A stretch of DNA of 46,967 nt from a virus (lineage: Duplodnaviria; Caudoviricetes), in the IMG/VR virus record IMGVR_UViG_3300047547_000347, positions 1 through 46,967 of that record, one strand, 5' to 3'. The position numbers and the translations under genes were made by a program. The stretch's first letter is position 1; every line of letters begins with the position of its first letter. The notes under the pieces are model-generated. The model was not told the DNA's origin and ran no database searches. It was given only the letters and a program-made list of their open reading frames with translations. Positions 27,132 to 44,355 of this stretch are shown here, in pieces.

Positions 27132-28940
27132 ATGCCCTCCGCCACGATGAAGGCTTTGGAGCGTTCATACGCTCTTTCTAACTCTACGCAGCTCCGTTAT
27201 ATGGAGATGCAGAAGGCCGGATCGACGGGGATGATCGATCTGGATGCCGGCAGTGGTGGACTGGCTCAGCTCAGCCAGTTTCAAGATCAAGCAGCCAACC
27301 GCCAGCGGTACAGTCTGTTTCGTGGCCACATCTACTCCGCAGTCAACGCGATTGCGATGGAGGCTGCCGGTCAGCCGGTGCATGTGGGTAAGCGAAAGAA
27401 GAAGGAGAAAGAGAAGAAGCCCAAGGACAAGAAGGATTACTCGCATCGGTCGAAGATGACCATTGCACTGCGAGCCAAAGCTGCCCGCAGTGAGATGGAA
27501 GTGATTGATGATCACGATTTGCTAGACAACCTAGAGTATCCGAACCCCATCCAGACCAAATGGCAGTTCGTGTATTCCTTCGTCGCTAATTTGAGCCTGA
27601 CTGGTTGGGCTTTTATCGTTGGTGGCAAGAAGAACGAAGAAAAGGGCAAAGGTGGTGGGTACGAGTGGTACTCGGTGCCGACCACTTGGGTACACCCGGA
27701 TCATTCGCAAGGTGCGTTTTCACGCTACAAAATCTACAACCCGAAGGATGCAGCCGGCGCCCAGAAGGAGAAGTGGATCCTGGGTAACCAGGTGAAGTTT
27801 GCCTACCTCCCTAATCCGTCCGATCCGATGGCCGGCTTGGCTCCTGCTGCTGCACAAGCAGCAGCAATCAGGATTGATGAGTACATTCAGTCGTCGCAGA
27901 CGGTGTTCTTTGAGAACGGTGTATTTCCGTCTGTGATTGTGACGGTGGGACAGAACCCGCATCCTGACCTGGGTACAGCAGGCGGCAGTCGGCCGCGTCT
28001 CAGTGCACCGCAGCGGCGTCAGGTGTATGCAGCAATCAAGAAGGTTAGTAGCGGCATTGCCAACTATGGTAATCCCGCGATCGTGGACGGCTTGATCGAG
28101 AAGATCGAACGGCTGTCCGCCACGCAAAATGAGATGGGTTGGGAGAAGAGCGAGAAGGCCGTTCGCTCCCGCATCCTATCCGCCTTTGGTGTGCACCCGT
28201 TCATCCTCGGTGAGGAGATGGCTGGATCGTATGCCCAGGCATACATCGTCCAAGATCGTTTCTTCAAAAAGGTCAACACGTTCCTTGATCTGCTCAGTGT
28301 GGTGATGAGCGGGTTTATCGGGGAAGGCGAACTGATCACTGAGTCTGAAGATTTGATGGTGTGGTGGGAGGCGTGCAAGGCTACTGATCCCAGCATGGAG
28401 AAGGCGACGTGGGAGTCAGCACGCAAGAATGAAGACGTTAGCCAGAACGAGTTTCGGGCGTGGATGGGCTTGCCTCCTGATGACGATGATGAGGAGGCGA
28501 TTATCAACGCATCGGTCGTGCCGCATGTTGCAAAGATTGCAGCAGATGCGACGGCTGGTACGATTACACCCGAGCAGGCACTCGCACTGCTAACCGGACT
28601 CGGGTTGCCGGAGGATGTGGCCAAAGAGATCGCAGGCGAGGGACCCCCAGAACCACCGCCTGGCGCCGACCCGGCGTTGATGGGTGCTGTACCAGGGCAG
28701 CCCGGACAACCACCACAGGCACCAGGCAAGCCGGGTGCAGTACCAGGTAAACCCGGTGCAGCTGAACCAGTTGCGGCGGCCAAACCAGCCCAGCCGAAGA
28801 AGCCGCCCAAATCTGCTACGCCTGCAGAAGAGTTGGCCAAGGCAACTGAGTCTTTGGATATGGCCATTTTGCAGCTCGAGGAAGAACCGCACCAGGCCGT
28901 TAGGCGGTTACTGGAGCGAGCCTCTCTGGTCGATGCATGA
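27132..28940 (+). CDS. portal protein (HK97 family)
   Basis: IYSAVNAIA, PNPIQT, LSLTGWAF, FFENGVFPS, ILSAFGVHP, NEFRAWMGLPP; Pro-rich C-terminal extension. Confidence 0.92.
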   Translation: MPSATMKALERSYALSNSTQLRYMEMQKAGSTGMIDLDAGSGGLAQLSQFQDQAANRQRYSLFRGHIYSAVNAIAMEAAGQPVHVGKRKKKEKEKKPKDKKDYSHRSKMTIALRAKAARSEMEVIDDHDLLDNLEYPNPIQTKWQFVYSFVANLSLTGWAFIVGGKKNEEKGKGGGYEWYSVPTTWVHPDHSQGAFSRYKIYNPKDAAGAQKEKWILGNQVKFAYLPNPSDPMAGLAPAAAQAAAIRIDEYIQSSQTVFFENGVFPSVIVTVGQNPHPDLGTAGGSRPRLSAPQRRQVYAAIKKVSSGIANYGNPAIVDGLIEKIERLSATQNEMGWEKSEKAVRSRILSAFGVHPFILGEEMAGSYAQAYIVQDRFFKKVNTFLDLLSVVMSGFIGEGELITESEDLMVWWEACKATDPSMEKATWESARKNEDVSQNEFRAWMGLPPDDDDEEAIINASVVPHVAKIAADATAGTITPEQALALLTGLGLPEDVAKEIAGEGPPEPPPGADPALMGAVPGQPGQPPQAPGKPGAVPGKPGAAEPVAAAKPAQPKKPPKSATPAEELAKATESLDMAILQLEEEPHQAVRRLLERASLVDA

Positions 28941-31900
28941 CAACTGCTATCTTGGATAAGATCAGGCAGGTTAAAGCCGCAACTGCTGCGGTGCAGTTGA
29001 AAATGCGGTTGCAGCAGCGGGACTACCATCGAGCCGCCTTTGAGCAGCTCCACCTGAAGAAGGTTGAGAAGGTTGAGGCCGATTTGCAAGAATCGCTAGA
29101 GCCTCTCTTCGCCGACCAGATCAAGTCGGTTGAGACGAAACTACGGAAGCTCGCTGCCTCCAAAAAGAAAGCCTTCTGTCCGACAGGACCGGGAGGTGGT
29201 GTCGACCCGACTTGTGGGTCAGGAGGAGGCGGAGCAGCGAAGGTGGGTGCTGGAGAAATTCCAAAGCCGCCTAAAGTGCCTGCTGTTTTGCAGCCGAAGT
29301 ACGACGAGATTTACGCAGCAGCAAAGAAAGGCGATCGTGCTGCGGTAGAAGCTGTTAAGACAAATCCGAACGCACAGTCTCCGTATCCAAAGAAGTTGCA
29401 CCAGTACAAGACTGAGGTACTGGCTGCGATGGACACAAGCAAAGGCGACGGGAAGAAGCCCTCCGCTCCAAAAAAGGCGGACTTTACCATCGAAGAGCTG
29501 GTTGATGCCCCGGGGAGGGACGTTCAACAGGCTATGGCTAAGTTGGGGTTGAATCATGCAACTGTCGAGCAAATTGCTCGTGCGGCGGGGGCAATTTCTG
29601 GAGCTCACGTTCAGATTGCCGCCGGTGTGCTGAACGAGTGGATTCGAGTGGATGTCCAGCACGAAGATTACAAGGCAGTTCGGGTATTTGACAAAGAGGG
29701 ACTCAATAATGCGAATTTCAGCGTCACCAAACCTGGGAGTGGGCTTGGTACCCGCATCTTTTCTCAACAGGTAGCTGAAGCGTCATCGCTTGGGATCAAG
29801 AAAATCCACACCTATGCGGCTGGCGAGCCGGACATAGCCAAATTCAACGGATACTACACCTGGCCTCGATTAGGGTACGATGGCAGGATACCTCGAAGTA
29901 ATATGCAGAATGCTGGTAGGAAATTACTCAAGCAGCAATTCCCCGACGCCAAGAAAATCAGCGATTTGATGCGGACTAAGGCCGGTCGGGATTTTTGGAA
30001 GAATCACGGTGCGGGAGCTTCGTTGCAGTTTGATCTCTCGCCCAATTCACAATCAAGGCAGGTGCTTGATGCCTACGTCGCAGCCAAATTCGGATCAGGA
30101 GCAGCAGGTGGAAAATCCGCCGGAGATGACTTCAGAAGACGACGAGCTGCTGGATCAGATCTGGGACAACCTCCCGACGGCGAATACGTCTGGGGAGGAG
30201 AACCCGGCACCCTAGCCAAGAAGGTATTCGACCCATCGGAGTGGGACGAAGAACTTATTGACCGAGCACTCCCGCCGTTAGCTAAGGCGATGGCGGTTGA
30301 GATGCTGCGGGCACTGAAAGAGTTGGGTGTTGACCCACGGCGACGTAAGCCGAGAAAAGACGTCAAAGCCTCCACCGCCACTGAATGGATGGAGGACTGG
30401 AACATCGACCTAGAGGACGTTGTCTTTGATACTCCGTCTGGTGGTATCTCCATGGGGTTTGTGACGGAGTACCCGACATGGATGAAGACCGAGATCAAGA
30501 ATCGGCTGCAAGAAACCTTCGAGCAGGACTATTGGGCGAAGGTCAACGAGACGACCTTTGGTGACATCGAAGGTTACCTGAAGAAGGGATTGAAAGACGG
30601 CTGGTCCATCCAGAAGATGGCCGATGAGATCATGCCGCAGCTGATGAATCAAGGTAACTACGCTGAGTGGCGAGCCAAGACGATTGCTCGCACTGAGAGT
30701 GGTAATGCGTTGAATGGGGCTCGTGTTGCAGCAGCGGATAAGTTGATTGACGAGATCCCCGAACTGCCGATGAAGAAGGTGTGGTTGTCCGTGCTGGGTA
30801 CCACCACCAGACGGGAGCATGCTGACCTGGACGGAGTGCCCGCCAACAAAGACGGCTTATGGAAACTAGGTGGTGTCTGGGTACGTTGGCCGGGTGATAT
30901 TAATCTTCCAGTGGCGCAGAGGGCGAATTGTCAGTGCACTATCGTGGTTTCTTGGGGAGTTACCGATGAGTCGGCTGAAGAACTGATTGCTGAGTACGGT
31001 CAACGGCTGGCCGAAGATGCACCGGATGAGGAAAAAGCGTTCTGTCCTACCGGTCCCGGAGGTGGTGTAGATCCGACTTGTGGAAGCGGCGGCGGAAGTG
31101 CCGGACCGAAAGCCGGCCATGATTCACGTGGGGTGCCTATGCCGCCCAAGGTGCCGGGCAGTATCCAGCACAAGTTCGATTCCATCTACAACGCATCACT
31201 GTCGGGCAAGAAGTCCGATGTCGAGGCAGTCAAAACCAATCCAGACGCACAGTCACCGTACCCGAAGAAGTTGCACCAGTACAAACTGGATGTACTGAAG
31301 TCGATGGATACGGCAGTTCCCACTGCAACGCCTGCGGCGAAGCCGGTTGAGCAGCCGAAACCGGCTGCTGTTGAGGCTCCCGTTCCCAAGCCGATCCCGA
31401 TGCCGAAGCCGGCAGTGATGCCGAGCACGGCTACCTCAGACGGCTTCACTATCGCGGAGAAGAAGCAGCGGTTTGATGAGCACCTAGCCAAGGCGCAAGA
31501 ACTGCTTCCAGAGATTCATAAACTCGATAAAATCAGTCGAGACAAGAGTCTCACATCTGCAAAGAGGATTCAAGCTCGCCTTGATCACAAGCGAGTGAAC
31601 GCTGCTCGACAGGCTCTCCTTTATAAGGCACAGACAGAGAGGATGTCTGCAGAGGCGGCAGATCCGAAAGGGTATCGGCAGCTTCGAGAGGAATTTGAAG
31701 CGAAGCACGATGCATACACCAAAGCCGATCAACAGTTTGCGGAAAAGTTGGTGGCAGCGGGCGTGACCGCAAAAGAGGACTACCATTCGTTCAGTGCCTT
31801 GGATATAGGTTCGAAAGGATACAGTTTTGATAATGATGATCCGTATCCCCGTCAGGCAAAGAATTATCCGGGACTGACACGTGAACAGTACACCGAAGCT

Positions 31901-32839
31901 CAGGAACTATCAGCACGATACAGCGAGCTGCGAGCACAGGAAGACTTCAGCAAACCGTATTATGGAGAACCGGCAACGCCTCGGCAGTTGAATCAAACTG
32001 GCTTGAATGCACCTTCGCCCATTCTTCCTGGTAAGGTTGGTCAAGGTGGGGCGGACGACGCTACACGTGATTTTATGGGTCAGGCTGAAATACTGATCCA
32101 AGTCAAACCGAATGCGTTCGTGAAGATTGTATCTACCGAACGCATCAAGAACAAATTCGAGGGTGGTGCGACAGGTAGTGTCGGTGCTGGTAATTCCGAC
32201 TACAACAACTCTCGGAAAACGGCAGAAGCTCGGACCTTTGATATCGATCCCGAGGCCCCAGCAGCCAGTCGCCCAGTCTACGGGTACCTGCAACATCCGG
32301 ATCGGGCGGTATCAAGTGCTGCATCAATGGGCATGACTTACGGCACGGTGCAGGTGGTGTTGAAGCCGTCCGCAAAAGAACGTACGTCGTACACCGTCGG
32401 TGATTCGCTGGATGATTATTCGAAGACATTCCAGCAAGCGGGGTCTGTATCAAATCCAATCAACAACAATTTCAAACCGGAAGTCAAGTACGAGTACCTT
32501 GCAGAAAAACCGGAAAGAATAGTCAAGGCTGGACCTACGAAACAGGATTGGTTCGTCACCACTGAGGTGGGCGGACAGACGATGTCTTCAGATTCAGGTT
32601 ATGTGTTGAAGCTCTCGCCGCAGTACATCGAAGCACAAATTCATGGAGGGATTCAGTTGTCTGACATTGCAGCCTTCCGAGTTCCGCGTGGACTTGAGAT
32701 TCCCGACAAGACACGCACCAAACTTCAGAAAGCTGGCGTATCATTGATTGAAGTGCCGCCTCGGCACCCGTCTAGTTTCTACGGGATGGAAGATTGGGAT
32801 TCGGCGTTGGTGGATTCTATCAACCCGAAGAAAGACTGA
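28937..32839 (+). CDS. MuF/SPP1 gp7-like head morphogenesis protein with inserted GNAT-like domain and C-terminal DUF3626-like domain
   Basis: MuF core about 30500-30960 (IARTES, KKVW, TRREH, RWPGD, NCQC). GNAT-like GSGLGTRIF...NGYYTWPRLGY. C-terminal RPVYG, YG, TVGDS, YIEAQIHG. Confidence 0.85.
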   Translation: MTTAILDKIRQVKAATAAVQLKMRLQQRDYHRAAFEQLHLKKVEKVEADLQESLEPLFADQIKSVETKLRKLAASKKKAFCPTGPGGGVDPTCGSGGGGAAKVGAGEIPKPPKVPAVLQPKYDEIYAAAKKGDRAAVEAVKTNPNAQSPYPKKLHQYKTEVLAAMDTSKGDGKKPSAPKKADFTIEELVDAPGRDVQQAMAKLGLNHATVEQIARAAGAISGAHVQIAAGVLNEWIRVDVQHEDYKAVRVFDKEGLNNANFSVTKPGSGLGTRIFSQQVAEASSLGIKKIHTYAAGEPDIAKFNGYYTWPRLGYDGRIPRSNMQNAGRKLLKQQFPDAKKISDLMRTKAGRDFWKNHGAGASLQFDLSPNSQSRQVLDAYVAAKFGSGAAGGKSAGDDFRRRRAAGSDLGQPPDGEYVWGGEPGTLAKKVFDPSEWDEELIDRALPPLAKAMAVEMLRALKELGVDPRRRKPRKDVKASTATEWMEDWNIDLEDVVFDTPSGGISMGFVTEYPTWMKTEIKNRLQETFEQDYWAKVNETTFGDIEGYLKKGLKDGWSIQKMADEIMPQLMNQGNYAEWRAKTIARTESGNALNGARVAAADKLIDEIPELPMKKVWLSVLGTTTRREHADLDGVPANKDGLWKLGGVWVRWPGDINLPVAQRANCQCTIVVSWGVTDESAEELIAEYGQRLAEDAPDEEKAFCPTGPGGGVDPTCGSGGGSAGPKAGHDSRGVPMPPKVPGSIQHKFDSIYNASLSGKKSDVEAVKTNPDAQSPYPKKLHQYKLDVLKSMDTAVPTATPAAKPVEQPKPAAVEAPVPKPIPMPKPAVMPSTATSDGFTIAEKKQRFDEHLAKAQELLPEIHKLDKISRDKSLTSAKRIQARLDHKRVNAARQALLYKAQTERMSAEAADPKGYRQLREEFEAKHDAYTKADQQFAEKLVAAGVTAKEDYHSFSALDIGSKGYSFDNDDPYPRQAKNYPGLTREQYTEAQELSARYSELRAQEDFSKPYYGEPATPRQLNQTGLNAPSPILPGKVGQGGADDATRDFMGQAEILIQVKPNAFVKIVSTERIKNKFEGGATGSVGAGNSDYNNSRKTAEARTFDIDPEAPAASRPVYGYLQHPDRAVSSAASMGMTYGTVQVVLKPSAKERTSYTVGDSLDDYSKTFQQAGSVSNPINNNFKPEVKYEYLAEKPERIVKAGPTKQDWFVTTEVGGQTMSSDSGYVLKLSPQYIEAQIHGGIQLSDIAAFRVPRGLEIPDKTRTKLQKAGVSLIEVPPRHPSSFYGMEDWDSALVDSINPKKD
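29168..29233 (+). repeat. KAFCPTGPGGGVDPTCGSGGG motif, copy 1
   Basis: Peptide repeated at 31034 and 43948 with synonymous codon differences. Confidence 0.95.
30108..30215 (+). CDS. overprinted 35-aa acidic mini-protein nested in the MuF gene (alternative frame)
   Basis: AGGAG (30097-30101) 6 nt before GTG 30108; MENPPEMTSEDDELLDQIWDNLPTANTSGEENPAP*. Confidence 0.5.
   Translation: MENPPEMTSEDDELLDQIWDNLPTANTSGEENPAP
31034..31099 (+). repeat. KAFCPTGPGGGVDPTCGSGGG motif, copy 2
   Basis: Identical peptide to copy 1. Confidence 0.95.
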
Positions 32840-35439
32840 TGATGAGAACGCTGAGAACTCAGTACCTGCCAGAATCGCAGTGGTTGTACCTCAACAACGC
32901 TCTCGTCGTTGGCTTCGACTTTGACTCTGAACAGCCGGTGTTGCAGTACACACCAGGAGAAGAAGTCACGCTGCGAATGGCTCAGCGGGTGGCTTGGGAT
33001 CAAGGAGAAGAGGCGTTTGACAAGGATGAATTGGAACTGATTGAAAAGGCGATGAGGCCGTTTCGGCGTGATGACGAAGATACTGATGGACCAGAGAAGC
33101 CCAAAGGAGGCGCCGGCTCCGGAAACTTTTCCCACCTCGGCCGTGCCGGAAAAGTAGGTGGATCGGGACAGGGTGGAGGTCCCGTCAAAGATCAAGAAGG
33201 CAAGTTCATCCCAGGAGCTGTCGGTAAGACACTCGGTGTCGATACCAGCAGTTGGGATAAATCGTCGTCCAATGCACAGTGGGCGATGAAGAAGCTGTAC
33301 AAGATGGAACAAATGGCGGCAGCCGGCCATTGGAGCCTACTTGCAGCTCATGCTTGGAAGACCAACGCACAGTACCCAGATAAGTACAAGAAGGCGGTGC
33401 TTAAAGCCCAGGAGGGTATTCAAGCACTCAAGACCAAGGCAGTCAATGCACCACCGGCAGGCACCACGCCTGTGGCTAATCCGCCGGTACCCGCACCGGT
33501 GCCGAAGTGGAACAAGGTCGGTGGTCAGCTTGGTTCGAATCCAGGCGGTACCTACGAATTTGAAGGGAAGAAGTTCTACGTCAAGTTCCCAGCCGACCCA
33601 GATGCAGCTCGGACAGAAGTGCTGGCGTGCAAGCTGTACGAAGCAGCCGGTGCAGATGTCGTCAAGGCACACCTAGTTGAGATTGACGGGAAGACCGCAG
33701 TCGCAACGGAGTGGCTTGATACCAAGGCCATTGACTATGGTAATGCGGGCCAGAAGCAGAAAGCACAGGAGAACTTCGCAGCACACGCCTGGCTGAACAA
33801 CTGGGATGCGGTTGGTGCAGTAGGCGACACCAACAATATGCGGATGACGGCTGATGGTAAGGCCGTGATGGTGGATGCGGGTGGGTCTCTGGATCGCAAG
33901 GCGACCGGCGGCAAGAAGGTGTTTACGGATGATCCTGCGGCGTGGGACGACATGCGGAATCCGAACATCAATCCGTCTGCTGCAAAGGTGTTCGGATCGA
34001 TGACACCCGATCAGTTGACACTGTCAGCGAATAAGATTTTGTCTGTCAGTACTCAACAAGTTGACGATCTGGTGGACAAGTACGGGCCCGGAACTGTTGC
34101 TCAGAAAGCTGCACTAAAAGCGACACTCTACAATCGGCAGGAGGCGATTCTCAAGAAGACGGAAATCGTTATCCAGAAACCTGCACGAGTGTCGACTCAG
34201 CAGACAGAGGATCCCACTGAATACGTTCTGACAGGGACGACGCCGGGCGGGAGCATGATCTACACGGCTGCTGCTCCTGCTTCTAAAGTCCCGATGGCCG
34301 TACCACCGCCGCCCAAGGTCGCGAGCTACGCACAGCAGCACGGCGACAAGATGAATGCGATGTACGAAGCCGCACAGTCCGGCGACATCGCAAAGGTGAA
34401 TGCAATCAAGACGAACCCGAATGCCAGCAGCGCCTGGCCGAGCAAAGTCCACGCCTACAAGATGCAGGTATTGGCGGCGATGCAGTCAGGCGGGAAGGCA
34501 GATGGCAATCACGTCGTGCAGAAAACAACGGCTACCGGGCAAAAGGTAACGATCAAGTCCGAGTCCTTCCCAACCAAACCAGTTTTTGTTTCTAAGAATG
34601 CTGCACAGAAAGCAGCTAACGAAGCAGCAGTTGAGCAGGCGTGGAAGCACGCCGAGGCCGGTGACTTAGCATCGCTGCAAGGGATGGACTTGCCGGCGTC
34701 GCCGAAATTGAAGCAGTGGCATTCAGAGTTGGCGTCTGAGCTATCGGTTCAGCTCAATCCTCCACCGCCGACCAAGTCGCTTTCAGAAGGGTACATCGAG
34801 GCGACGTCTCATATTTCTGGCAAGTCCGGGAAAGAAGGTCTTCAAAAGATCGGGTACTGGACGGTGTTGGGTGATGTGGGCGGTGTGCCTAGCGACTTCC
34901 CTGATGGCGGTTCGAGAACCTTCCCATCCAAGGCTTGGGATGATGGTAATTCGAGATACGAAGCTCTGCCCGGACCGCAGAAGACAGAGCTTCTGAGTTA
35001 TACCGGCGGCGGTTACAGCTCGATCAATTCATCGCTGCGGACGGAAAGTAGTCCATCGGCTAGTGCGATGAATGCAGCAAAAGGCGCAATGAATGCTGCT
35101 CTTACTCTGCCGACCGGATACACGTTGACACGAGGCCATACCGGTTCTGAGAAAGAGTTCAAGAACCTGAAACCCGGGATGGTAGTCGCGGACAAAGGAG
35201 TGTTGAGTACCAAAGCGAAGGGAAAGTGGAGCGGTAACATCCAGTGGAAAATCAAATTAGGGACAGGTGTGAAAGGTGTGCCCGCCCGTCAGTTTTCACA
35301 TCATGGGCATGAGAACGAAGTCATCCTGCCGCCCAATTCGCGTATGTTGGTTACGAAAGTGATAGCGAAGAAGGGCGGTTACTTTGATGTGGAGGCTATT
35401 GCACTGCCCACTCAAGATTCACAATGCTGCCCACCGTAG
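32839..35439 (+). CDS. multidomain effector: HipA/PI3K-like kinase domain plus VIP2-type ADP-ribosyltransferase
   Basis: GQLGSNPGG, YVK, TEVLA, NWD...NN, MVDAGG kinase motifs. YTGGGY..IN..LR, LTRG, VLST, ENEVILP (R-S-E ART). Confidence 0.82.
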   Translation: MMRTLRTQYLPESQWLYLNNALVVGFDFDSEQPVLQYTPGEEVTLRMAQRVAWDQGEEAFDKDELELIEKAMRPFRRDDEDTDGPEKPKGGAGSGNFSHLGRAGKVGGSGQGGGPVKDQEGKFIPGAVGKTLGVDTSSWDKSSSNAQWAMKKLYKMEQMAAAGHWSLLAAHAWKTNAQYPDKYKKAVLKAQEGIQALKTKAVNAPPAGTTPVANPPVPAPVPKWNKVGGQLGSNPGGTYEFEGKKFYVKFPADPDAARTEVLACKLYEAAGADVVKAHLVEIDGKTAVATEWLDTKAIDYGNAGQKQKAQENFAAHAWLNNWDAVGAVGDTNNMRMTADGKAVMVDAGGSLDRKATGGKKVFTDDPAAWDDMRNPNINPSAAKVFGSMTPDQLTLSANKILSVSTQQVDDLVDKYGPGTVAQKAALKATLYNRQEAILKKTEIVIQKPARVSTQQTEDPTEYVLTGTTPGGSMIYTAAAPASKVPMAVPPPPKVASYAQQHGDKMNAMYEAAQSGDIAKVNAIKTNPNASSAWPSKVHAYKMQVLAAMQSGGKADGNHVVQKTTATGQKVTIKSESFPTKPVFVSKNAAQKAANEAAVEQAWKHAEAGDLASLQGMDLPASPKLKQWHSELASELSVQLNPPPPTKSLSEGYIEATSHISGKSGKEGLQKIGYWTVLGDVGGVPSDFPDGGSRTFPSKAWDDGNSRYEALPGPQKTELLSYTGGGYSSINSSLRTESSPSASAMNAAKGAMNAALTLPTGYTLTRGHTGSEKEFKNLKPGMVVADKGVLSTKAKGKWSGNIQWKIKLGTGVKGVPARQFSHHGHENEVILPPNSRMLVTKVIAKKGGYFDVEAIALPTQDSQCCPP

Positions 35440-37085: not shown

Positions 37086-37113
37086 TTGTTAGCGTCTTCG
37101 GTACGCTTATAGT
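37086..37113 (+). promoter_or_regulatory. possible promoter for head gene block
   Basis: TTGTTA-16nt-TATAGT immediately after the terminator. Confidence 0.35.
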
Positions 37114-37160
37114 GGGGAAGATCTCAGGCATTCACGAGAGACAATGATCCGGGGTGATCG

Positions 37161-37712
37161 ATGAAGAATGTAACTTTCTATCTTGGACCGGCGACAGACA
37201 TCCTGGCAACCCGTCAGTTGACGATCACTCGTATGCCGAATGCGAGTGACGGCACGACCATGCCGTCCGCGTCGCACGATGCGGACGCTGGTGCAGGGAA
37301 CTCGTTCGTAACGGTCGCCCTCGCCAGCAATCAGATCTTCCAGGCTAAGCTGGTTGACACGCTCGACACCGGCGAAGTCGCACGCCCGCAAGTCATTCAG
37401 TTTCACACGGGGGACATGGTGTTCCCGGGTCCTGCGGTTACCGACGGGTACCTTCGTGTCTACGCTGTAGAAGACCTGAGCAGTTCCAGCTCGGTCAGCT
37501 CTAGCAGCCTCTCGTCCAGTTCTGCTTCGTCGGTTAGTTCGGCGTCCAGCGGCGAGTCGAGTCAGTCGTCCAGCAGCCTGTCGAGTTCCAGTAGCTCGGT
37601 GTCGAGTAGCTCCAGCCACTCGTCCAGTTCTGCGTCGTCGGTTAGCTCGATCAGTTCGGCGTCTTCGGCTTCCAGCAACTCTTCGAGTAGCTCGTCCAGC
37701 AGCACGTCGTAA
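37161..37712 (+). CDS. beta-domain protein with C-terminal poly-serine tail
   Basis: About 105-aa folded-looking domain plus about 75-aa Ser tract. Confidence 0.75.
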   Translation: MKNVTFYLGPATDILATRQLTITRMPNASDGTTMPSASHDADAGAGNSFVTVALASNQIFQAKLVDTLDTGEVARPQVIQFHTGDMVFPGPAVTDGYLRVYAVEDLSSSSSVSSSSLSSSSASSVSSASSGESSQSSSSLSSSSSSVSSSSSHSSSSASSVSSISSASSASSNSSSSSSSSTS

Positions 37713-37804
37713 TGAACCGGATGGTCCAGTCTTGGAATCGTTCGCAGTCGCGGCCTAGGTACACAGGGCCGGACAGCGTGGTAGTAGATGAGGAGAGGAT
37801 TCAA

Positions 37805-38119
37805 ATGGCTGATCGACGTCCATTGCCGGGTGAGAGTGTTGCACTCACCAAGACACAGCTCAAGAACATCGTGACCGCTCTCAAGGAGCGATCACTTGAT
37901 CAGGTGCTGGTCATCCGTAATGAGACCTACGCCGCACTGAAGCGGCTGGAACTCGAGCGTGATGTGACCAAGAATTGGGAAGGGAATCCCAATGGCAGCA
38001 ATCAGTTTGATATGCGGTCGATCCTGGATTGGGTCCGCCGCATTCAGAAAGATGATCTCGTCGCTGTTGATCAACTGTTGATCATCGACGCCACAGCCTG
38101 TGCACGCGGCGGAAGCTGA
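37805..38119 (+). CDS. hypothetical protein
   Basis: GAGGAGAGG RBS before ATG 37805; frame open from 37712. Confidence 0.65.
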   Translation: MADRRPLPGESVALTKTQLKNIVTALKERSLDQVLVIRNETYAALKRLELERDVTKNWEGNPNGSNQFDMRSILDWVRRIQKDDLVAVDQLLIIDATACARGGS

Positions 38120-38412
38120 TGTACATCGGATACGCACAAGTAGCCTGCACCAATGCCGTCAAAACGGTAACGGACTTCGGCACGGTTCCTGCCGAGGCTA
38201 CACACGTTGAGTTGCAGTGTGCTGCCTCTGCGGGCGGCATCAACTACACCATGGACAACGTAACGGTGCCGGGTGATCAGCGTGGAATGTATCTCGCTGC
38301 TGCCCATCCTCCGAAACTGTTCGAGATTGCTGATTTCAAGCGAATCAAGTTCTTGAGTGTGGATGCGGCATCGTCGCACTTGCACGCTCACTACATCGGA
38401 CGGCAAACGTGA
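38119..38412 (+). CDS. putative small structural protein
   Basis: TGATG/GTGA overlaps; beta-rich 97 aa. Confidence 0.6.
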   Translation: MYIGYAQVACTNAVKTVTDFGTVPAEATHVELQCAASAGGINYTMDNVTVPGDQRGMYLAAAHPPKLFEIADFKRIKFLSVDAASSHLHAHYIGRQT

Positions 38413-40322
38413 TCGATACGCACGACCAACTGGTTCGAGAGATCCGTGCTCGTCAGCAAAAGCAGACGAGTTTTAATTACGGTATCTCTACGGCAGATGC
38501 GTACGTCAAGACGATCTATGAGTGCGTAGGTTCCGATTTGTGTTACCGGTACGCCGCTAAAGGTAACACCAGTTTCGATGACGTGATGCGGAAGGCGGCC
38601 AAGACGCTGACTTACTCCAACCCCGACATGGAGGTGGAGGAGAAGGCGACGGACATTTACGCCCAGGGACTGTTGCCGGACGGCATCGAGCTGCCCAAGA
38701 ACACACTGATGGTCTTCCGCCACGTGCTGACCACGCCGCGGAAGGATCGGGACGGTGACATCCTGCGAACGCAGGGTGCGGAGATCGATCCCAAGATGCT
38801 GTTGCTGTGGCAACACGTCCATACGCTGCCGATTGGCAAATACCTCGGCACGCATTCGCAGAACTCAAAGAAGCTGGTGGTTTACAGTGCGATCGTTGAC
38901 ATGAACGATCTTGCACACGATTCAGCGGTGATGATTGAGAACGACATGGGTCGGTTCTCACATGGCTTCCGTGCCATCGCGTTCGACAACCTCAAAGAAG
39001 AGGGCGGCGGACGCACGTCGGGCAAAGGAGGCTTCGATGTCAAGCAGTTTGAAGTCATGGAAGAGTCCCTTGTGTCCGTACCGTCTAATGCCGACGCGGA
39101 CGTCGAGGAAGTTATCATGTCCCTGGTGGAAAGCAAGAAGCTGACAAGCCCTCTGATGAAGGGGGTCGGTCGGCAGATTCGGGAGAAGTCGATGGCGAAG
39201 TCAACCACCGTACCGGTGAAGCTGGACCTCCAGGTAATGCTCAACGGGAAGAACATCGATGCAGAGTATGGACTCGAAGAGAAGGGCGGGGGCAAAGAAG
39301 GATGCGGTTGCTCCGGCGCATCAGGAGAAGAAGATGGAGCTGCCGACAGCAAAGCGAAAGGTCCCGACGACCAAGAAGTGACGTGCAGTTGCGGCAAGCC
39401 GGCAAAGGAGTGCGACTGCAAGAAGGACGACAAGAAGGCTAAGAAGGCCATGTGCCCCGACTGCGAATCACCGCTCAACGAAGACGGTATCTGCGAGGAG
39501 TGCGGATACGGAATGGAAGAAGAGAAGGCTGCCGTCGACCAAGACGAAGCCGACGCGAACAACGACATGGGCGTTGTGATGTGCCCGAGCTGCGGCACTG
39601 TTGCACTGGTGGACGGCAAGTGTCCCAAGTGCGGCAGCACACCGGCCAAGGCGCCCAAGGCCTTCCAGCCCGACTGGAGCAAGGGGTACGTAAGCGGGTC
39701 AGCACTCACCGGGTCGTGGGAAAACATCCAGTCCGGCCTGTACGAGAAGGTCACCGCCTTCGCCAAGCAGAATGGAATGGACCTCAGCAATCAGCCAGGC
39801 GGCGGTTACGCCTACCTGCTTGCCACCTACGATGGTAATGCGGTCATCGCAGTGAGTCAGCCGACAGGTGAAGCTTCTTACTATCGAGCCGAATGGAAGA
39901 TGACGGACAAGGGTCCGAAGTTTGTCGGCTCGATGAAGGAAGTGCGGATCGAAGTCAGTACGGACATCATCGAGAAGTCGATCAAGTCCGGTCGCGTACT
40001 CAGCGGCAAGAACAAAGCTGCATTGCAAAACGTGCACGACAGCATCGATGAACTGGATCAGAAGGAACTGCTGCTGTCCAAGGGCGGTCGAGCTCTGTGT
40101 CGCCAGAGTAAGACGACGCTCGTTGAAATCATCAAGGCGTGTGATCCGCCGCCGTCTCAGGTGTCGGTGCTGGACATCACAGCGAAGGATGCAATGGCTG
40201 AGTTCCTCATCAAGGCGACGCCTGAAGAGATGGAACGCATGACCAAGACAATTGAAACCCTGAAGTCCATCGACAAGCGGGACAACAGGACGAAGCAGAT
40301 CCGAGCTCTTGTGAGCCGGTAA
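38409..40322 (+). CDS. HK97-type prohead (maturation) protease with zinc ribbons and C-terminal extension
   Basis: DRDGDIL, LLWQH..LPIGK, FSHGF, EESLVSVPSN; CxxC pairs; KSGRVLSGKN. Confidence 0.9.
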   Translation: MIDTHDQLVREIRARQQKQTSFNYGISTADAYVKTIYECVGSDLCYRYAAKGNTSFDDVMRKAAKTLTYSNPDMEVEEKATDIYAQGLLPDGIELPKNTLMVFRHVLTTPRKDRDGDILRTQGAEIDPKMLLLWQHVHTLPIGKYLGTHSQNSKKLVVYSAIVDMNDLAHDSAVMIENDMGRFSHGFRAIAFDNLKEEGGGRTSGKGGFDVKQFEVMEESLVSVPSNADADVEEVIMSLVESKKLTSPLMKGVGRQIREKSMAKSTTVPVKLDLQVMLNGKNIDAEYGLEEKGGGKEGCGCSGASGEEDGAADSKAKGPDDQEVTCSCGKPAKECDCKKDDKKAKKAMCPDCESPLNEDGICEECGYGMEEEKAAVDQDEADANNDMGVVMCPSCGTVALVDGKCPKCGSTPAKAPKAFQPDWSKGYVSGSALTGSWENIQSGLYEKVTAFAKQNGMDLSNQPGGGYAYLLATYDGNAVIAVSQPTGEASYYRAEWKMTDKGPKFVGSMKEVRIEVSTDIIEKSIKSGRVLSGKNKAALQNVHDSIDELDQKELLLSKGGRALCRQSKTTLVEIIKACDPPPSQVSVLDITAKDAMAEFLIKATPEEMERMTKTIETLKSIDKRDNRTKQIRALVSR

Positions 40323-40329
40323 CCAACGC

Positions 40330-40914
40330 ATGTCGATCATCTACTGTGCGGTCAATCGGGTAAACGGAAAGCGATACATCGGGAAAACCCGTAATGCGCT
40401 TTCTGCAAGACGTCGAACGCACGAGTTGTGTTCGTTAAAGGAAGCGGGTGTACGTTTTTGCTTCCATCGGGCTTTAAGAAAGTACGGACATGCGGCTTTT
40501 GATTGGGAAGTGCTCTTTGAGGGAGTTGTTAGTCGACAGGTCTTGAGTAAACTTGAAATAGACTTTATTCAAGATCTGCAGACGCAGGCGCCGGATGGAT
40601 ACAACATGACGCCGGGCGGCGAAGGCGGTAATCATGGAATTGAGCACACCCGAAAAATGCAGGCGAAAGCTGTTCTAGCTAATACCGGCAGTAAGAGGTC
40701 ACATACAATTCGGCAGAAATGTCGAGAGGCTCAGATAAAAAGATTTCAATCCCAAGAACAAAGACAAGCGGTCGGGGCTTCCCGTAAAGGTAGGACTTGG
40801 GAAGAGATCTACGGAACCGAAAGGGCCCAGCAAAAGCGGCGGGAATATAGCTTGCGAATGCTGGGAAACGGGAGAGGGAACGGTAGAGGAGTAGCTGTCA
40901 ACGGTGGTCGTTGA
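40330..40914 (+). CDS. GIY-YIG homing endonuclease
   Basis: IIY...NGKRYIGKT, ALRKYG..F.W, GYNMTPGG; paralog of 6206..6898. Confidence 0.88.
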   Translation: MSIIYCAVNRVNGKRYIGKTRNALSARRRTHELCSLKEAGVRFCFHRALRKYGHAAFDWEVLFEGVVSRQVLSKLEIDFIQDLQTQAPDGYNMTPGGEGGNHGIEHTRKMQAKAVLANTGSKRSHTIRQKCREAQIKRFQSQEQRQAVGASRKGRTWEEIYGTERAQQKRREYSLRMLGNGRGNGRGVAVNGGR

Positions 40915-40955
40915 CGCTATCCAGACTGTAGTGAGTTGACGAAAGGATAGCACCT

Positions 40956-42593
40956 ATGCGACTCACCAATAAGATGCGAAAGTGGCTCATCGACGAGTGC
41001 AACGTCAAGGCGACGTCCACTGACGATGAGTTCAAGAAGGCCGCCGGCACGGCGTTGGCGGCTGGCACCTTGACCGCGGAAAAGCTCACTGAGTTGTCCA
41101 CGACCAAGGAAGACGAAGAGGCCGACGACGTGGTCAGCCTGTTCAAGGGCATCTCGGACACCTTCAAGGACATCAGCAAGTCGCTGAAGACCGACGAGAA
41201 GTCTGGTGAAGCCGAAACCAAGGACGGCGAAGAGCCGGACGGCGAAAAGTCTGCAAAGACGACTAAGCCGACCGGCGAGAAGGCCAAGCCTTCGATGCTA
41301 GAGAAGCTCTTCACCCGGTCCGCCGGACCTGTCGATGAGGACGTCGATGGCGAAGAGAAGTCCTTCAGCGTTCGCATCAAGGAAGTTGCGGAGCAGTACA
41401 CCGACACCAAGTCGGCCCTGACGTTCCCCGAGTATACGGATAAGGGCAAGGCCCATCCGTTGGCCGGCAAGCCGGTCAAGGACTACTCGGAAGGTGCGTC
41501 GCGGACGATCCACGAGGCGTCGGACCTGGACAAGGCGGTTGCCGGAGCGTACGGCAAGTTCCTTGTGCAGACTGCTCGGCTCAAGAGCCGGTCGCTGGCG
41601 TTTGCTCAGCTTCCCCAGCACGACAGGGAACTGCTCTGCCATGCGATGGAGAAGATGACGTGGGGTGGATCTTCGGATGGCGGCGATTACGCCGACATCA
41701 AAAACCGCCGCCTGACGCCGGCAGAGCAGAAGGCCCTGATCGACGACAGCACTTCGGGCGGCTTGGAAGCTGCTCCGATTGTTTTCGACGACATGGTAAT
41801 CCAGACCCCGCTACTGAACGGCGAACTCTACCCACTGGTGACTCAGGTTCCTCTGGACCGCGGTCGTCGGGTGGAAGGTGTGTCGGTCGGCAACGTGACT
41901 GGAAGCTGGGGCGGTGTCGATGACACGGCTATCTCGCTGTTTAACACGGCGAGCTACGTCGCAGCCTTCGATACGACCATCTTCCGCTGGGAAGGTGCGA
42001 TCCGGCTCGGACTGGACTTCCTGTCCGACACGCCGATTGACTTCGGCCCGATCATCACCGCTCAGTACGGTGAACGGCTGCTTGAGGACCTGGACGATGT
42101 CATTGCCGTCGGCAATGGCACGACCCAGCCCGAAGGCATCATGACCAAGAGCGGTACCACCAGCGTCAGCTTCGGTGGGGCCACGTCCATCGGCAACTAC
42201 GAATCGCTGCGGTTCGGCGTGCCGAAGAAGGAGCACAAGGCGAACGTCAAGTCGTCCGCCGTGTTCGTCGGGACGGAAACCAGTTACCAGCGGGTGCGTG
42301 CTATTCCGGTCGGAGCGAGCGATGCTCGTCGCCTGGGCGGAATGGATTACGACTCGTACTCCTGGATGCAGCGGCCGTATAAGATCAACGAGTCCTTGAC
42401 GAACTCGCAGATCTTCTACGCCATCCTTGCACGGTACCGGATGTACCGTCGGCGTGGACTGTCCATGCGGCAGTCGACCGAGGGTGACACGCTGATCCGC
42501 AACAACGAGTTGCTGATGGTCGCGATGGCCCGATACGGCGGTCAGCTCGAGCGTGGTGCTTGTGCTGCTGTCACGTCGACCGCACCGGCCTAA
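40956..42593 (+). CDS. major capsid protein (HK97 fold) with long N-terminal scaffold/delta region
   Basis: KALIDDSTSGG..P, LDD..AVGNGTTQPEGI, RYGG; downstream of protease and followed by terminator. Confidence 0.92.
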   Translation: MRLTNKMRKWLIDECNVKATSTDDEFKKAAGTALAAGTLTAEKLTELSTTKEDEEADDVVSLFKGISDTFKDISKSLKTDEKSGEAETKDGEEPDGEKSAKTTKPTGEKAKPSMLEKLFTRSAGPVDEDVDGEEKSFSVRIKEVAEQYTDTKSALTFPEYTDKGKAHPLAGKPVKDYSEGASRTIHEASDLDKAVAGAYGKFLVQTARLKSRSLAFAQLPQHDRELLCHAMEKMTWGGSSDGGDYADIKNRRLTPAEQKALIDDSTSGGLEAAPIVFDDMVIQTPLLNGELYPLVTQVPLDRGRRVEGVSVGNVTGSWGGVDDTAISLFNTASYVAAFDTTIFRWEGAIRLGLDFLSDTPIDFGPIITAQYGERLLEDLDDVIAVGNGTTQPEGIMTKSGTTSVSFGGATSIGNYESLRFGVPKKEHKANVKSSAVFVGTETSYQRVRAIPVGASDARRLGGMDYDSYSWMQRPYKINESLTNSQIFYAILARYRMYRRRGLSMRQSTEGDTLIRNNELLMVAMARYGGQLERGACAAVTSTAPA

Positions 42594-42637
42594 TGTGTAC
42601 GAGGGGTGGGCTTCACGAGGGCCCACTCTACGCCACG

Positions 42638-42689
42638 CCTGGCCGTCGGTTTTGTTCTTCGGCCGACGGCCAGGTTTGTCTTTGCTTTT
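42638..42689 (+). terminator. Rho-independent terminator after capsid gene
   Basis: CCTGGCCGTCGG / CCGACGGCCAGG 12-bp stem plus T-rich tail; a second hairpin lies at about 42604-42628. Confidence 0.8.
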
Positions 42690-42740
42690 ATCGAAGAACA
42701 TCTGTATAGCTGATCGAAGAACAAAGAAAGGAGGGCAAAC

Positions 42741-43358
42741 ATGCCCACTGCGACACAAGATTCGCCGGCCAAAGAGGCCCAAATCGACTCAGTGATTCCG
42801 CCGTTCGGGATCGAGGCAGACCATCCGCGGAACTGTGACCTGATCATTCAGGCAGTACCGGGATTGATTCTGCGAAGTGCGATTGACACGTCCAAAGGTG
42901 TGCGGGACGTCCGCACTGGCCAGATGGTGATCCCGAAGGATCAGATCATCAACATGGGCGACTTCCCCAAGACGCCCGGCATGCAGTTGCACGTTAATCC
43001 GAACGACTGCACTTACGTGGTGATTGATCCGCTTGCAAAAGATGAGCGGATCATGGAATTGGTGCAGCAGTGGATCCGCACCAAGACTCCTTACCGTAAT
43101 GCCAAGATCAAACTTGAGCACACGGTGGAAGGGAAGCTCGACCGCCATCGGATGAAGACGCTGTGCCGAGAAATGGTGTGGCTGGTGCAGGCCAACGAAG
43201 CCAAGAAGGTCCGCGGCAGTATGCCGGACCTGGAAGACCTCGAGGCGTTGCCTGGCTACTTCATGCTCAACCCCGGAAGCCGCGTGCAGAACACGCAGCC
43301 GATATACGAGAAGGATTTCGAGGCGTGGGTTGATCGCCTTGCCAACCAGGGCGGCTGA
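42741..43358 (+). CDS. hypothetical protein
   Basis: AAGGAG RBS; 205 aa. Confidence 0.75.
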   Translation: MPTATQDSPAKEAQIDSVIPPFGIEADHPRNCDLIIQAVPGLILRSAIDTSKGVRDVRTGQMVIPKDQIINMGDFPKTPGMQLHVNPNDCTYVVIDPLAKDERIMELVQQWIRTKTPYRNAKIKLEHTVEGKLDRHRMKTLCREMVWLVQANEAKKVRGSMPDLEDLEALPGYFMLNPGSRVQNTQPIYEKDFEAWVDRLANQGG

Positions 43359-43360
43359 AC

Positions 43361-43879
43361 GTGGCGAAGAAGCCAAGTGACGGACTTAGTCGCGAAGAGC
43401 GACGTATCAGATCGATTGAAGCTGCCCGCCAACGACGTGTTGACCGGGCAGCGACAATTGACATACAGACGCAATGGTTCATCAAGGAGGTGTGTGGTAC
43501 GGTTAGCCTGAGCCTCAAGAAGAGGGTCAGGATTGCGACTGAGCTTGTCAAGAATAAGATCATTCGCAACATCAGCCGACCGGTTACCAAGACAGTCAAG
43601 ACCCATTTGGAGAATGGAAAGCCGGTACAGCGTACAGTCGTGTCTGATCGGTCTAAGAAGGGAGAGTTCCCCAAGGCCGATACAACGCAGTTGATGAAGA
43701 CAATTTTCAGTGCGTATGAAGAGCCGGGGGAAGGGAATTTTGCGGGGTTTGTGGGAACCCCGCTGGACTATGGAGTGATGCTGGAAACCTTGCCGCAGCT
43801 CGATCGAAGTTTCCTTGTGCGAACACTGAATGAAGAACGCGACAACGTGATGGCGATTTTGTCGGGACCGATCAAATGA
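43361..43879 (+). CDS. HK97 gp10-like neck/tail completion protein
   Basis: GEFPKADT..L, VGTPLDYG..LE, RSFL; position in neck region. Confidence 0.7.
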   Translation: MAKKPSDGLSREERRIRSIEAARQRRVDRAATIDIQTQWFIKEVCGTVSLSLKKRVRIATELVKNKIIRNISRPVTKTVKTHLENGKPVQRTVVSDRSKKGEFPKADTTQLMKTIFSAYEEPGEGNFAGFVGTPLDYGVMLETLPQLDRSFLVRTLNEERDNVMAILSGPIK

Positions 43880-44355
43880 AAGTTGACAAAGTCAAATTCG
43901 CCGATTCGATGGCCAAGGCTGCTACCAGTTTCGCCGCCCTTGCCGAGAAGGCGTTCTGCCCGACTGGACCAGGTGGCGGTGTGAACCCGACGTGCGGATC
44001 AGGAGGCGGATCAGGAGGCGGATCAGGCCTCTCTCCAGAGGCTGCCAAAGAGCGGAAGGCATTGACGAAGATGATGCCTTCCGGATCGAAGGCCACAGCC
44101 GACGGCGTTCGATGGGAAAAGAGAGGCGGTCAGGCCGGAAAGAAGATCTTGTCTAAGTTGGTAGAGAAAGCCACTGCTGCTGGGTTTGTTCAGCAGACAC
44201 ACGAATCACACTCGTCGCAGGCTGGTCCGGTTGGTAGTGGCCAGGTTTACAAACATCCAAATGGACACACTCTTCGGACTGATAAGAGTTTTGGTGCGAC
44301 GGCTGACAGCAACTGGTACTCGGCGACATTGACCTTCGGATCAGGACCTGCGTGA
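43876..44355 (+). CDS. small protein carrying the KAFCPTG motif; candidate head-packaged protein
   Basis: 24-aa leader, motif, Gly-Ser linker, about 105-aa unknown domain; ATGA/GTGA overlaps. Confidence 0.75.
   Translation: MKVDKVKFADSMAKAATSFAALAEKAFCPTGPGGGVNPTCGSGGGSGGGSGLSPEAAKERKALTKMMPSGSKATADGVRWEKRGGQAGKKILSKLVEKATAAGFVQQTHESHSSQAGPVGSGQVYKHPNGHTLRTDKSFGATADSNWYSATLTFGSGPA
43948..44013 (+). repeat. KAFCPTGPGGGVNPTCGSGGG motif, copy 3
   Basis: One substitution (D to N) relative to copies 1 and 2. Confidence 0.95.

Follow-up and report, generated by a model that had tools for sequence, protein, structure and literature searches.

A Cys-loop peptide behind predicted prohead-protease sites may mark effector-like units in phage head genes

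How a phage chooses, processes and ejects the proteins carried in its head is understood in few phages. The locus described here raises this question through a 21-residue peptide, K-A-F-C-P-T-G-P-G-G-G-V-[DN]-P-T-C-G-S-G-G-G, present in three in-frame copies in the window, the whole 46,967-nucleotide stretch of viral DNA analysed. We propose, giving the scheme an even chance of being right, that effector-like units on a MuF protein and its neighbours are cut after Lys in the prohead and keep the Cys-loop following the Lys, referred to here as the tag, as a handle for retention or ejection.

29168..29230, + strand: predicted cut site (K78 of a 1300-residue ORF) and tag copy 1 (sequence pattern; cleavage predicted)
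31034..31096, + strand: predicted cut site (K700 of the same ORF) and tag copy 2 (sequence pattern)
43948..44010, + strand: predicted cut site (K25 of a 159-residue ORF) and tag copy 3 (sequence pattern)

A back-translated tag pattern matches the window three times and none of 100 shuffles. Compared pairwise over 60 nt, the copies show 13, 13 and 17 differences; third codon positions account for 11, 12 and 14 of these, respectively, a divergence indicative of protein-level selection and not of DNA homology. The earlier note had reported one peptide at 29168, 31034 and 43948 with synonymous codon differences, and both observations stand; a second kind of tag and a tag-like peptide, also in the window, had been overlooked. 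No curated family covers the tag: 24 tag segments had no Pfam match (best E 0.24), PHROGs (best E 0.03) and NCBIfam gave no family, the PDB gave no match (best E 0.2 and 0.7), and no description was found in the literature searched. A possible likeness of the tags to the DNA-binding hook motifs of small terminases was considered; none of the 24 segments had a library match that would bear on it.

Two of the copies lie in the MuF polyprotein, which follows a portal gene that has no tag.

27132..28940, + strand: portal protein, 602 aa, without a tag (PF04860, E 2e-27)
28937..32839, + strand: MuF polyprotein, 1300 aa (domain matches, tags, model)
29258..29437, + strand: helical module of about 60 aa behind tag 1, no known family (BLASTP, model)
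29477..30106, + strand: cargo 1, candidate GNAT-fold acetyltransferase (model, Foldseek, profile search)
30566..30943, + strand: MuF (Phage_Mu_F) core domain, aa 544–669 (PF04233, E 5e-8, over cut-off)
31133..31306, + strand: helical module, second copy (BLASTP)
32147..32665, + strand: cargo 2, DUF3626-like domain (PF12294, E 7e-5, under cut-off)

The polyprotein runs from an N-terminal helix through K78 and tag 1, the helical module, the GNAT-like domain and the MuF domain to K700 and tag 2, beyond which are the second helical module, a Pro-rich linker, a helical region and the DUF3626-like domain. The module behind tag 1, helical in the predicted model, matches the region behind tag 2 and, in the next gene, residues 503–565 of an 881-residue protein (BLASTP, E about 1e-13 and 1e-11); PHROGs gave no match under E 0.2. 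A different cargo had been described after each tag, which holds for the sequence beyond the module but not for the module itself, the first element met behind both MuF copies. Cargo 1 is likely to be a GNAT-fold acetyltransferase: its predicted model has a pLDDT of 90 (45, a poor fold, from the single sequence), the top Foldseek rows are nearly all GNATs, yet with a best E of only 7e-3, and six of eight rows of a profile search (best E 0.09) are acetyltransferases by name or the same protein. A homologue of cargo 2 also sits behind a Lys and tag in phage G012; a solved relative of this DUF3626 unit was looked for and none was found.

Downstream are a second cargo gene, a small ORF with the tag-like peptide, and the stand-alone gene that carries the third tag copy.

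32794..35439, + strand: second cargo gene, 881-aa ORF (PF03496, phrog_802)
33103..33168, + strand: second tag kind, G-G-x-G-S-G-N-F-x-H-x-G-R-x-G-x-x-G-G-S, after K104 (codon 33103; sequence)
37970..38008, + strand: N-P-x-G-x-N-Q-F peptide after K87 (codon 37970) in a 135-aa ORF, 37712–38119 (sequence)
43876..44355, + strand: stand-alone 159-aa cargo gene, amid head–tail joining genes (tag; no family match)

The second cargo gene, likely to start at the ATG at 32839 or 32842, comprises the second tag kind after K104, a kinase-like domain (aa 236–460; weak matches only, HipA_C at E 0.017), the helical module and an ADP-ribosyltransferase (aa 723–858; PF03496 E 1e-8, Alt-like phrog_802 E 4e-4). 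Its tag kind has 164 distinct copies in viral contigs, with a variable preceding residue. The 175-aa gene that follows has homologues behind the MuF gene of phage G010 and in G008. The N-P-x-G-x-N-Q-F peptide is possibly a third tag kind, a weaker case than the other two: the motif stands behind Asn sites in four N-class phages, and a narrow DNA pattern for N-P-x-G-x-N-Q found nothing in viral contigs, where looser protein matches exist. The 159-aa cargo has a 25-aa leader, K25 and tag 3, and an α/β domain of about 100 aa of no known family; the protein matched nothing in Pfam, PHROGs or NCBIfam, an atlas search gave no usable family, and its homologues bear other tags behind K or E sites.

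The tag, with consensus F-C-[PA]-T-G-x-G-G-G-x-[DN]-x-[ST]-C, is common in viral contigs. Among 74 tagged ORFs are 22 MuF, 10 portal and 7 protease fusions, and 33 of the remaining 35 lie within 4.7 kb of a MuF, portal or protease gene. The tagged units, swapped freely between phages, include ADP-ribosyltransferases, GNATs, 2H phosphoesterases and others; when 102 were scanned, 62 had no Pfam match and others resembled ADP-ribosyltransferases, anti-CBASS-like 2H enzymes, RelA/SpoT and topoisomerase IB. Searches of 50,697 GenBank phage records (low-complexity filter on) revealed no cultured carrier, and a further search returned only matches at E 6 to 9. The earlier note had held that a motif common in non-phage proteins would count against it; with only three loci in 185,579 cellular genomes, a common cellular-protein motif is ruled out.

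Cleavage in front of the tag can be compared with maturation of the capsid, for which the window holds both components.

38409..40322, + strand: prohead protease (S78/HK97 type) with long extensions (PF04586, phrog_80, TIGR01543, alignment)
40956..42593, + strand: HK97-fold major capsid protein with an N-terminal extension of about 259 aa; predicted cut K259/A260, codon 41730 (PF05065, TIGR01554)

With a delta-like capsid extension and the His and Ser motifs of an S78 protease, the head maturation module has the predicted components of an HK97-type system. The HK97 capsid cut follows a Lys. The protease matches phrog_80 (E 3e-12) and, under cut-off, PF04586 (E 0.002) and TIGR01543 (E 9e-6); His136 and Ser184, presumably catalytic, are invariant in an alignment with four of four homologues. 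In the capsid protein PF05065 and TIGR01554 are both over cut-off, and the TIGR01554 match begins at residue 255 (profile position 98 of 385), in agreement with the fold start proposed near K259, whose context, AEQK/ALIDD, is likewise as reported. This place is homologous in 18 other capsids and aligns with LEGK/ALN of the RcGTA capsid (6tb9); the main text of the RcGTA paper contains neither 'cleav' nor 'protease', so that a cut at the aligned Lys is not confirmed there. A single-sequence search of the capsid against the PDB found nothing.

Lys precedes the tag in only 12 of 171 copies, which rules out a Lys-specific system; nor is the tag confined to S78 proteases, and the HK97-type specificity first suggested does not hold as stated. 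Among the tag copies of one genome the preceding residue is instead constant: it agrees in 186 of 192 pairs (31 genomes; shuffle mean 60, maximum 94) and, with proteins clustered at 50%, in 462 of 482 pairs (110 proteins), versus 293. Near the library-defined capsid start, a residue of the phage's own class followed by a small residue occurs in 35 of 35 capsids, as against 70 of 175 for other classes, over an interval that was picked after viewing the sequences and is lenient, with a 40% background; the classes matched are K, R, N, E or F/Y. The E site of G036 falls at the interval's edge, and the only tag of that phage reads GGE/AF. Within PF05065, all 15 R-tag phages have Arg at the equivalent place, and all 4 K-tag phages have Lys. 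Directly after the protease core are R/S (5 of 5), Asn (13 of 13) and E/S (3 of 4), counted over proteases with the anchor motif found; the S78 K class has no Lys site there. The protease-scaffold of the L-tag phage holds six L/A or L/S sites, one of which, GLKL/A, resembles the tag's GLEL/A. Out of sample, the second tag kind gave, by eye, D/S, D/A or D/G before the capsid fold in all 7 D-tag phages whose PF09950 match is strong, and R-[AT]-[AL]/ in all 5 A/L-tag phages. The genomes are related and amount to about six independent lineages, with near-identical records (G001/G027; G014/G017/G039). When profiles were used blind to predict the class from the sequence behind the protease core, only 16 of 33 genomes were assigned correctly, against 13 of 33 for the largest class alone (four more were dropped as too short); among the failures were both XkdF-type K phages and 4 of 5 R phages.

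That the polyprotein stays whole, its within-genome sameness arising only through local duplication of tag copies, is very improbable in our estimate. Duplication would account for the sameness, many SPN3US head proteins are uncut (PMC10052503, in the sections cited), and the blind scaffold test is weak; the match at the capsid boundary in five classes and its repeat with the second tag in two further classes are left unexplained by duplication, and beyond P4 the sequence is not shared within genomes. Cleavage at the tag sites by each phage's own prohead protease is strongly supported by these sequence comparisons. The earlier note's idea that the maturation protease cuts just before the tag gains from the preceding residue tracking the capsid site, and its view that MuF is a polyprotein processed into effector-like units gains from tag placement and residue matching together. 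It had named a Lys not conserved in homologues as a reason for doubt; literally this is the case, but the residue follows the capsid's own site, and the non-conservation strengthens the predicted cleavage.

What the tag does beyond this is a separate matter. It always starts two residues past the predicted cut, with a prohead protease nearby in all residue classes, and the protease families of the tag-bearing classes probably share one fold. The tag may thus do no more than complete an optimised protease site on its downstream side, as a small turn that the prohead protease fold binds for fast cutting, with no later role. We regard this as unlikely: the capsid and protease sites of the same phages have no tag, several different tags fill the same place, and five tagged proteins keep a leader of 4–8 residues, little more than a cut site, so that site and tag stand at the very start with nothing there to separate. 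No tagged protein (0 of 119) starts directly with the tag.

Tags are much alike between classes (similarity 4.75, versus 5.17 within genomes), whereas P4–P1 are not (-0.81 between classes versus 1.6 within genomes). A leader shared upstream of the cut was not found overall (P22–P5, -0.75 within genomes versus -0.87 between classes); where a small gene stands alone, its leader shows only a weak amphipathic tendency (mean z 0.67; above zero in 13 of 19). Possible shared leaders were seen by eye as single cases, in three G006 genes.

The lack of a general leader, and the need of an entry route for the 35 of 74 tagged ORFs without a portal, MuF or protease domain, would suit a packaging signal that draws the precursor in by binding to prohead or scaffold, the first half of the 'packaging or ejection' originally proposed. 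We consider it distinctly unlikely, and the less likely half, because the other 39 of 74 are fused to a portal, MuF or protease domain, frequently with several tags per ORF, and the tag does not change from one to another of four portal and four capsid families; moreover, the T4 targeting sequence is N-terminal and the N-terminal peptides are removed (PMC9958956, in the sections cited). The constancy of the tag across unrelated capsids, and its presence on existing head components, lead us to favour a role after cleavage, in retention or ejection.

The tag might instead be a junction between cassettes, or a structural cap such as a loop closed by a disulfide or a metal; it would then aid the shuffling of modules or protect new N-termini, and ejection through it would not be required. 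The free exchange of units between phages and the two invariant Cys of several tag kinds fit such a function; Cys-free kinds in the same position speak against it, as does the third-position divergence described above, and we hold it to be improbable.

The post-cleavage reading that we prefer starts from what the sequence shows: tags occur only in or beside head genes and split the polyproteins into units of a few hundred residues. Precursors with a MuF, portal or protease part would be carried into the prohead by it, and the products of stand-alone genes by the short leader before the cut; taken together, these routes are probable. Each phage's own protease would then, very probably given the comparative support, cut one residue-class-specific bond, here K/A, and the freed unit would carry a 15-residue Cys-loop tag at its new N-terminus. 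We give slightly less than an even prospect to the next step, in which the tag, once exposed by the cut, would serve retention and ejection by way of DNA, the exit channel, a host factor or some other partner that phages have in common despite unrelated capsids. By analogy with T4 Alt and IPI, the enzymes may act early in infection on the host or its defences.

Repeated up to about ten times per chain and recurring in unrelated phage lineages, the tag could tentatively be a portable, protease-unmasked ejection signal, one of several interchangeable Gly-rich loops placed behind each phage's own maturation site in unrelated tailed phages, a generalisation that we doubt somewhat more than we believe. 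If so, any enzyme domain placed behind a tag would become injected virion cargo, protein ejection from phage heads would for the first time have a general sequence code, the injected arsenal and the protease specificity could be read from a genome, and the tag could be used for delivery. Were the tag to drive ejection, the long-open question of an ejection signal would be directly testable with a 15-residue peptide. The junctions offer a testable rule, by which the residue before the tag predicts the specificity of the maturation protease, and the domains behind them a catalogue of candidate injected effectors.

Processed, ejected head proteins have precedent in T4 and SPN3US, as the cited sections describe (PMC9958956, PMC10052503). 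T4 IPI–III and Alt are loaded into the prohead and trimmed by gp21, and IPI and Alt are injected (PMC9958956, sections cited); the putative cargo here resembles them in being non-structural and in including an ADP-ribosyltransferase. In T4 a conserved signal of about 10 aa is N-terminal, and N-terminal peptides are removed (PMC9958956, same sections), whereas here the peptide follows the predicted cut and would stay. A T4-type signal N-terminal to the protease site is not seen here, P22–P5 not being shared overall; a T4-type match of cargo site to capsid protease site is predicted. In SPN3US/phiKZ, gp245 cuts at A-X-E in capsid, portal and ejection proteins, as established by mass spectrometry, and long propeptides come off single proteins, with no shared post-cut peptide described in the cited sections (PMC10052503); one protease motif across head proteins is the common feature, here predicted from sequence. 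HK97 shares its protease and capsid families with this phage. From its capsid protein a 102-residue delta domain is cut off, and a gp4 segment can carry GFP into the capsid; the gp4/gp5 descriptions cited mention neither a cargo polyprotein nor a retained tag (PMC4351075, PMC11626933).

Phage polyvalent proteins combine many effector domains per chain among virion genes, and fusions to MuF, portal and capsid peptidase have been noted (Iyer 2017, PMC5512222; Iyer 2022, PMC9503650, sections cited). Several disparate effector domains per chain near virion genes are also found here, and ART-PolyVal, GNAT, 2H and zeta-toxin kinase domains are shared (PMC5512222, PMC9503650, same sections). The processing proposed for polyvalent proteins is through an internal metallopeptidase, and the cited descriptions hold no repeated junction tag or prohead-protease-matched site (PMC5512222, PMC9503650). 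A Pfam search of the window's own proteins found no polyvalent markers (MPTase, ART-PolyVal, LPD); ART-PolyVal occurs in 8 of the 102 tagged units, all of other phages.

In MuF polymorphic toxins, MuF is fused to enzymatic domains, with head loading and delivery with the DNA proposed (PMC5576092, PMC3482391, sections cited); the main text of Jamet 2017 (PMC5576092) contains neither 'cleav' nor 'motif'. The MuF domain itself is common to both (here PF04233 at E 5e-8), but cargo here flanks the MuF core on either side and also occurs on portals and proteases and in separate genes (compare PMC5576092, PMC3482391, same sections). Unlike the toxin layout of an N-terminal MuF and one C-terminal toxin, the core lies at aa 544–669 behind a GNAT-like unit, and the C-terminal domain is DUF3626-like, under cut-off. 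Downstream of MuF, where MuF polymorphic toxins have a cognate immunity gene, lie here the second cargo gene and then the 175-aa gene.

Three copies of the Cys-loop tag (F-C-[PA]-T-G-x-G-G-G-x-[DN]-x-[ST]-C) stand in frame in the window at 29168, 31034 and 43948, spread over two genes, the first two within the 1,300-residue MuF protein and the third in a gene for 159 residues. The pattern matches none of 100 shuffles of the window, and third codon positions hold 11/13, 12/13 and 14/17 of the pairwise differences between copies; the three synonymously diverged peptides described in the earlier note are thus a real feature. The record is linear, of 46,967 bases and about 50% completeness, and its genes run in the order portal, MuF, an ORF of 881 residues that encodes an ADP-ribosyltransferase domain, small genes, S78-type protease, GIY-YIG gene, HK97 capsid and head–tail joining genes, including the tagged 159-residue gene.

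Features of the window, by window position
14270–18523: PAS-domain gene, papain-like gene and trypsin–thioredoxin gene
29258–29437, 31133–31306 and 34300–34490: unnamed helical module of ~60 residues, behind both MuF tags and in the 881-residue protein
33103–33168: second tag kind, Gly-rich, directly behind K104 of the 881-residue protein
33499–34170: domain with kinase-like invariant residues
35448–35975: 175-residue gene after the kinase–ART gene
37161–37712 and 44859–45590: two genes, each encoding a long poly-Ser tail at the end of its product
37970–38008: third Gly-rich peptide, N-P-x-G-x-N-Q-F, behind K87 of the 135-residue gene product
40330–40914: homing endonuclease gene of GIY-YIG type, lying between the protease and capsid genes

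The suggestion that each copy precedes a different cargo held for the later domains; directly behind both MuF tags stands one and the same kind of helical module, which recurs in the 881-residue protein and in another tagged phage genome, G010. Past this module, the first unit continues into a domain whose model (pLDDT 90) resembles GNAT acetyltransferases, with consistent but weak fold matches (best E 7e-3). The second unit ends in a DUF3626-like domain, and the third is a domain of ~100 residues without a family. The kinase-like domain, common to tagged proteins of six other phages, has weak matches only, to HipA_C and PI3K. Homologues of the 175-residue gene lie behind the MuF gene in G010 and also occur in genome G008, its product being a possible immunity or chaperone partner. 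For the trypsin–thioredoxin gene, the nearest atlas clusters are in Planctomycetota, no more than a hint of the host.

In viral contigs at large, at least 163 stretches match the exact degenerate pattern (about 200 estimated), whereas a scan of 185,579 prokaryote genomes with a pattern of this type gave 4 stretches, at 3 loci; by eye, these 3 loci are small contigs whose genes resemble phage head modules. A motif common in cellular proteins, which the earlier note had named as a finding that would speak against its reading, is thereby rejected. No cultured carrier was found among 50,697 GenBank phage records, no structure containing the tag in a PDB search, and no prior description in the main texts of mostly open-access literature. 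Fifty of the larger tagged records were taken into the capsid search, and 60 stretches from 42 of these served for gene context. These 60 stretches hold 74 tagged ORFs (MuF 22, portal 10, protease 7); of the 35 others, 33 have a MuF, portal or protease gene no more than 4.7 kb away, and the remaining two are pieces of one polyprotein split by stretch ends. Searched against 50%-identity representatives, the 159-residue protein matched 478 proteins at E 0.001, and 119 of the 150 among the matches listed bear 366 tags, at a median spacing of 248 residues.

The residue directly before the tag (P1) defines classes of phages. Among 171 distinct copies, from 161 loci among the matches listed, R precedes 85, N 53, K 12, E 7, L 6, Y 5 and F 3, so that the Lys proposed as a constant of the site precedes all three copies of the window without being a general rule. 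Within genomes, P1 is identical in 186 of 192 pairs (F and Y pooled; shuffle mean 60), and within proteins in 462 of 482 against 293 (110 listed tagged proteins of the 50%-identity set), counts that overstate independence because the tagged genomes form about six lineages and some genomes are near-identical. Farther upstream than P4, the copies of a genome have no sequence in common.

Classes, their proteases and the site where the capsid fold starts (arrow, predicted cut)
K: S78 or XkdF proteases; EQK↓AL in the window
R: S78 protease; ESR↓A or DSR↓A
N: DUF2213-like protease; N↓A
E: phrog_29592/133-like; E↓S or E↓A
F/Y: phrog_976/3894; Y↓A
L: protease-like gene with no Pfam name; no capsid extension, but L↓A or L↓S at six places of the L phage's protease–scaffold

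Every class with a capsid extension has its own residue at the start of the capsid fold, a pattern that includes the EQK↓AL to which the earlier note had drawn attention in the window. In HK97, the delta-domain cut follows a Lys. Near the library-defined capsid start the own residue occurs in 35/35 cases and other classes' residues in 70/175, within a capsid interval chosen after the data had been viewed and leaving out the L and XkdF-K classes, whose capsids have no extension; the XkdF-K case for a matching site is unconvincing. A result against this match is that of a blind profile test on the sequence that follows the protease core, which picked the correct class for 16 of 33 genomes, not counting four whose regions were too short to use. 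A 13-capsid profile puts the boundary on LEGK↓ALN of the RcGTA capsid (6tb9), whose cleavage is not addressed in the main text of PMC7296036. The window's protease (38409–40322) has an acidic, Cys-rich stretch at residues 295–410, with several CxxC pairs and K↓A sites (for example, EEEK↓AAV), and in G010 (L225:11895–15197) the prohead protease is fused to an AAA ATPase domain.

An independent check of the match between P1 and capsid came from the second tag kind (G-G-x-G-S-G-N-F-x-H-x-G-R-x-G-x-x-G-G-S), present in 164 distinct copies in viral contigs behind K, D, L, N, H, A, E or F. At its first 80 loci, 58 of 67 within-contig pairs agree in P1, against 15, and by eye a capsid site that matches is present in all 7 D-tag and all 5 A/L-tag phages (30 records searched, 13 matching PF09950, 12 loci read). 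Genomes with the Cys-loop tag have four further tag kinds, again placed behind the residue of the class, and the N-P-x-G-x-N-Q-F motif also stands behind Asn sites in N-class phages. Homologues of the 159-residue domain are found behind the Cys-loop tag, behind the related peptide C-G-G-x-G-S-G-x-P-G-P-C after Lys, and behind Glu sites; in four (P0089, P0126, P0131 and P0092) the domain adjoins L-x-E↓A sites, which are typical of T4-type proteases. These four suggest that large phages use the same cargo.

The simplest reading of these junctions is one of two parts, a P4–P1 that varies with the protease of each phage and a tag that stays constant regardless of it. Cleavage before the tag is therefore likely; no cleavage at the tag is a rival reading. 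None of the 119 listed tagged proteins begins with the tag itself, and five have a leader of 4–8 residues that is almost purely cut site, as though maturation were needed to unmask the tag. The phage's own protease would cut at P1 and free the units, and the exposed tag would act after the cut, in the retention of each unit in the head and its exit together with the DNA. This role is put forward tentatively. Rival functions are an enhancer of the protease site, a structural cap and a packaging signal. Against the last, and for a role after the cut, the same tag spans four portal and four capsid families, which fits a binder of the capsid surface poorly, and proteins that are already head components need no tag to enter. 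Overall, this is probably a protease-processed head cargo system.

T4 gp21 trims head proteins including Alt, some of which are injected (PMC9958956), and the window's system is predicted from sequence to work like this one and like that of SPN3US (PMC10052503). Membership in the T4 targeting-sequence family was rejected because the conserved part stands behind the predicted cut. HK97 has a 102-residue delta domain cut off (PMC4351075; bioRxiv 2022.09.09.507160) and a gp4 segment that brings GFP into the capsid (PMC11626933), and the 80alpha minor capsid protein gp44 is an ejected DNA-end binder (PMC7290940). Tagged units draw on a cargo stock common to MuF toxins (PMC5576092, PMC3482391) and polyvalent proteins (PMC5512222, PMC9503650); identity with a standard MuF toxin was rejected for the window's MuF system.

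Of 105 units, 102 were scanned against Pfam, each trimmed to at most 520 residues, and 40 matched a family at E 0.001, six of these MuF only. The matches comprise ART-PolyVal (8), ADPrib_exo_Tox (6), 2H phosphoesterase (4, three also matching Acb1 under the cut-off), DUF2924 (3), zeta toxin (2) and, once each, RelA/SpoT, topoisomerase IB, HNH, peptidase C39, GGACT, Ntox46, cysteine dioxygenase, histidine phosphatase and pentapeptide repeats, plus a few weaker ones. The tagged MuF units whose 2H phosphoesterase domains match anti-CBASS Acb1 weakly (L192:7782–8756, L196:16309–17121 and L237:7293–8492) are candidate virion-borne anti-defence enzymes. The RelA/SpoT domain is tagged and stands alone in genome G006 (L223:8689–9417), and the tagged topoisomerase IB is in genome G011 (L189:352–1215).
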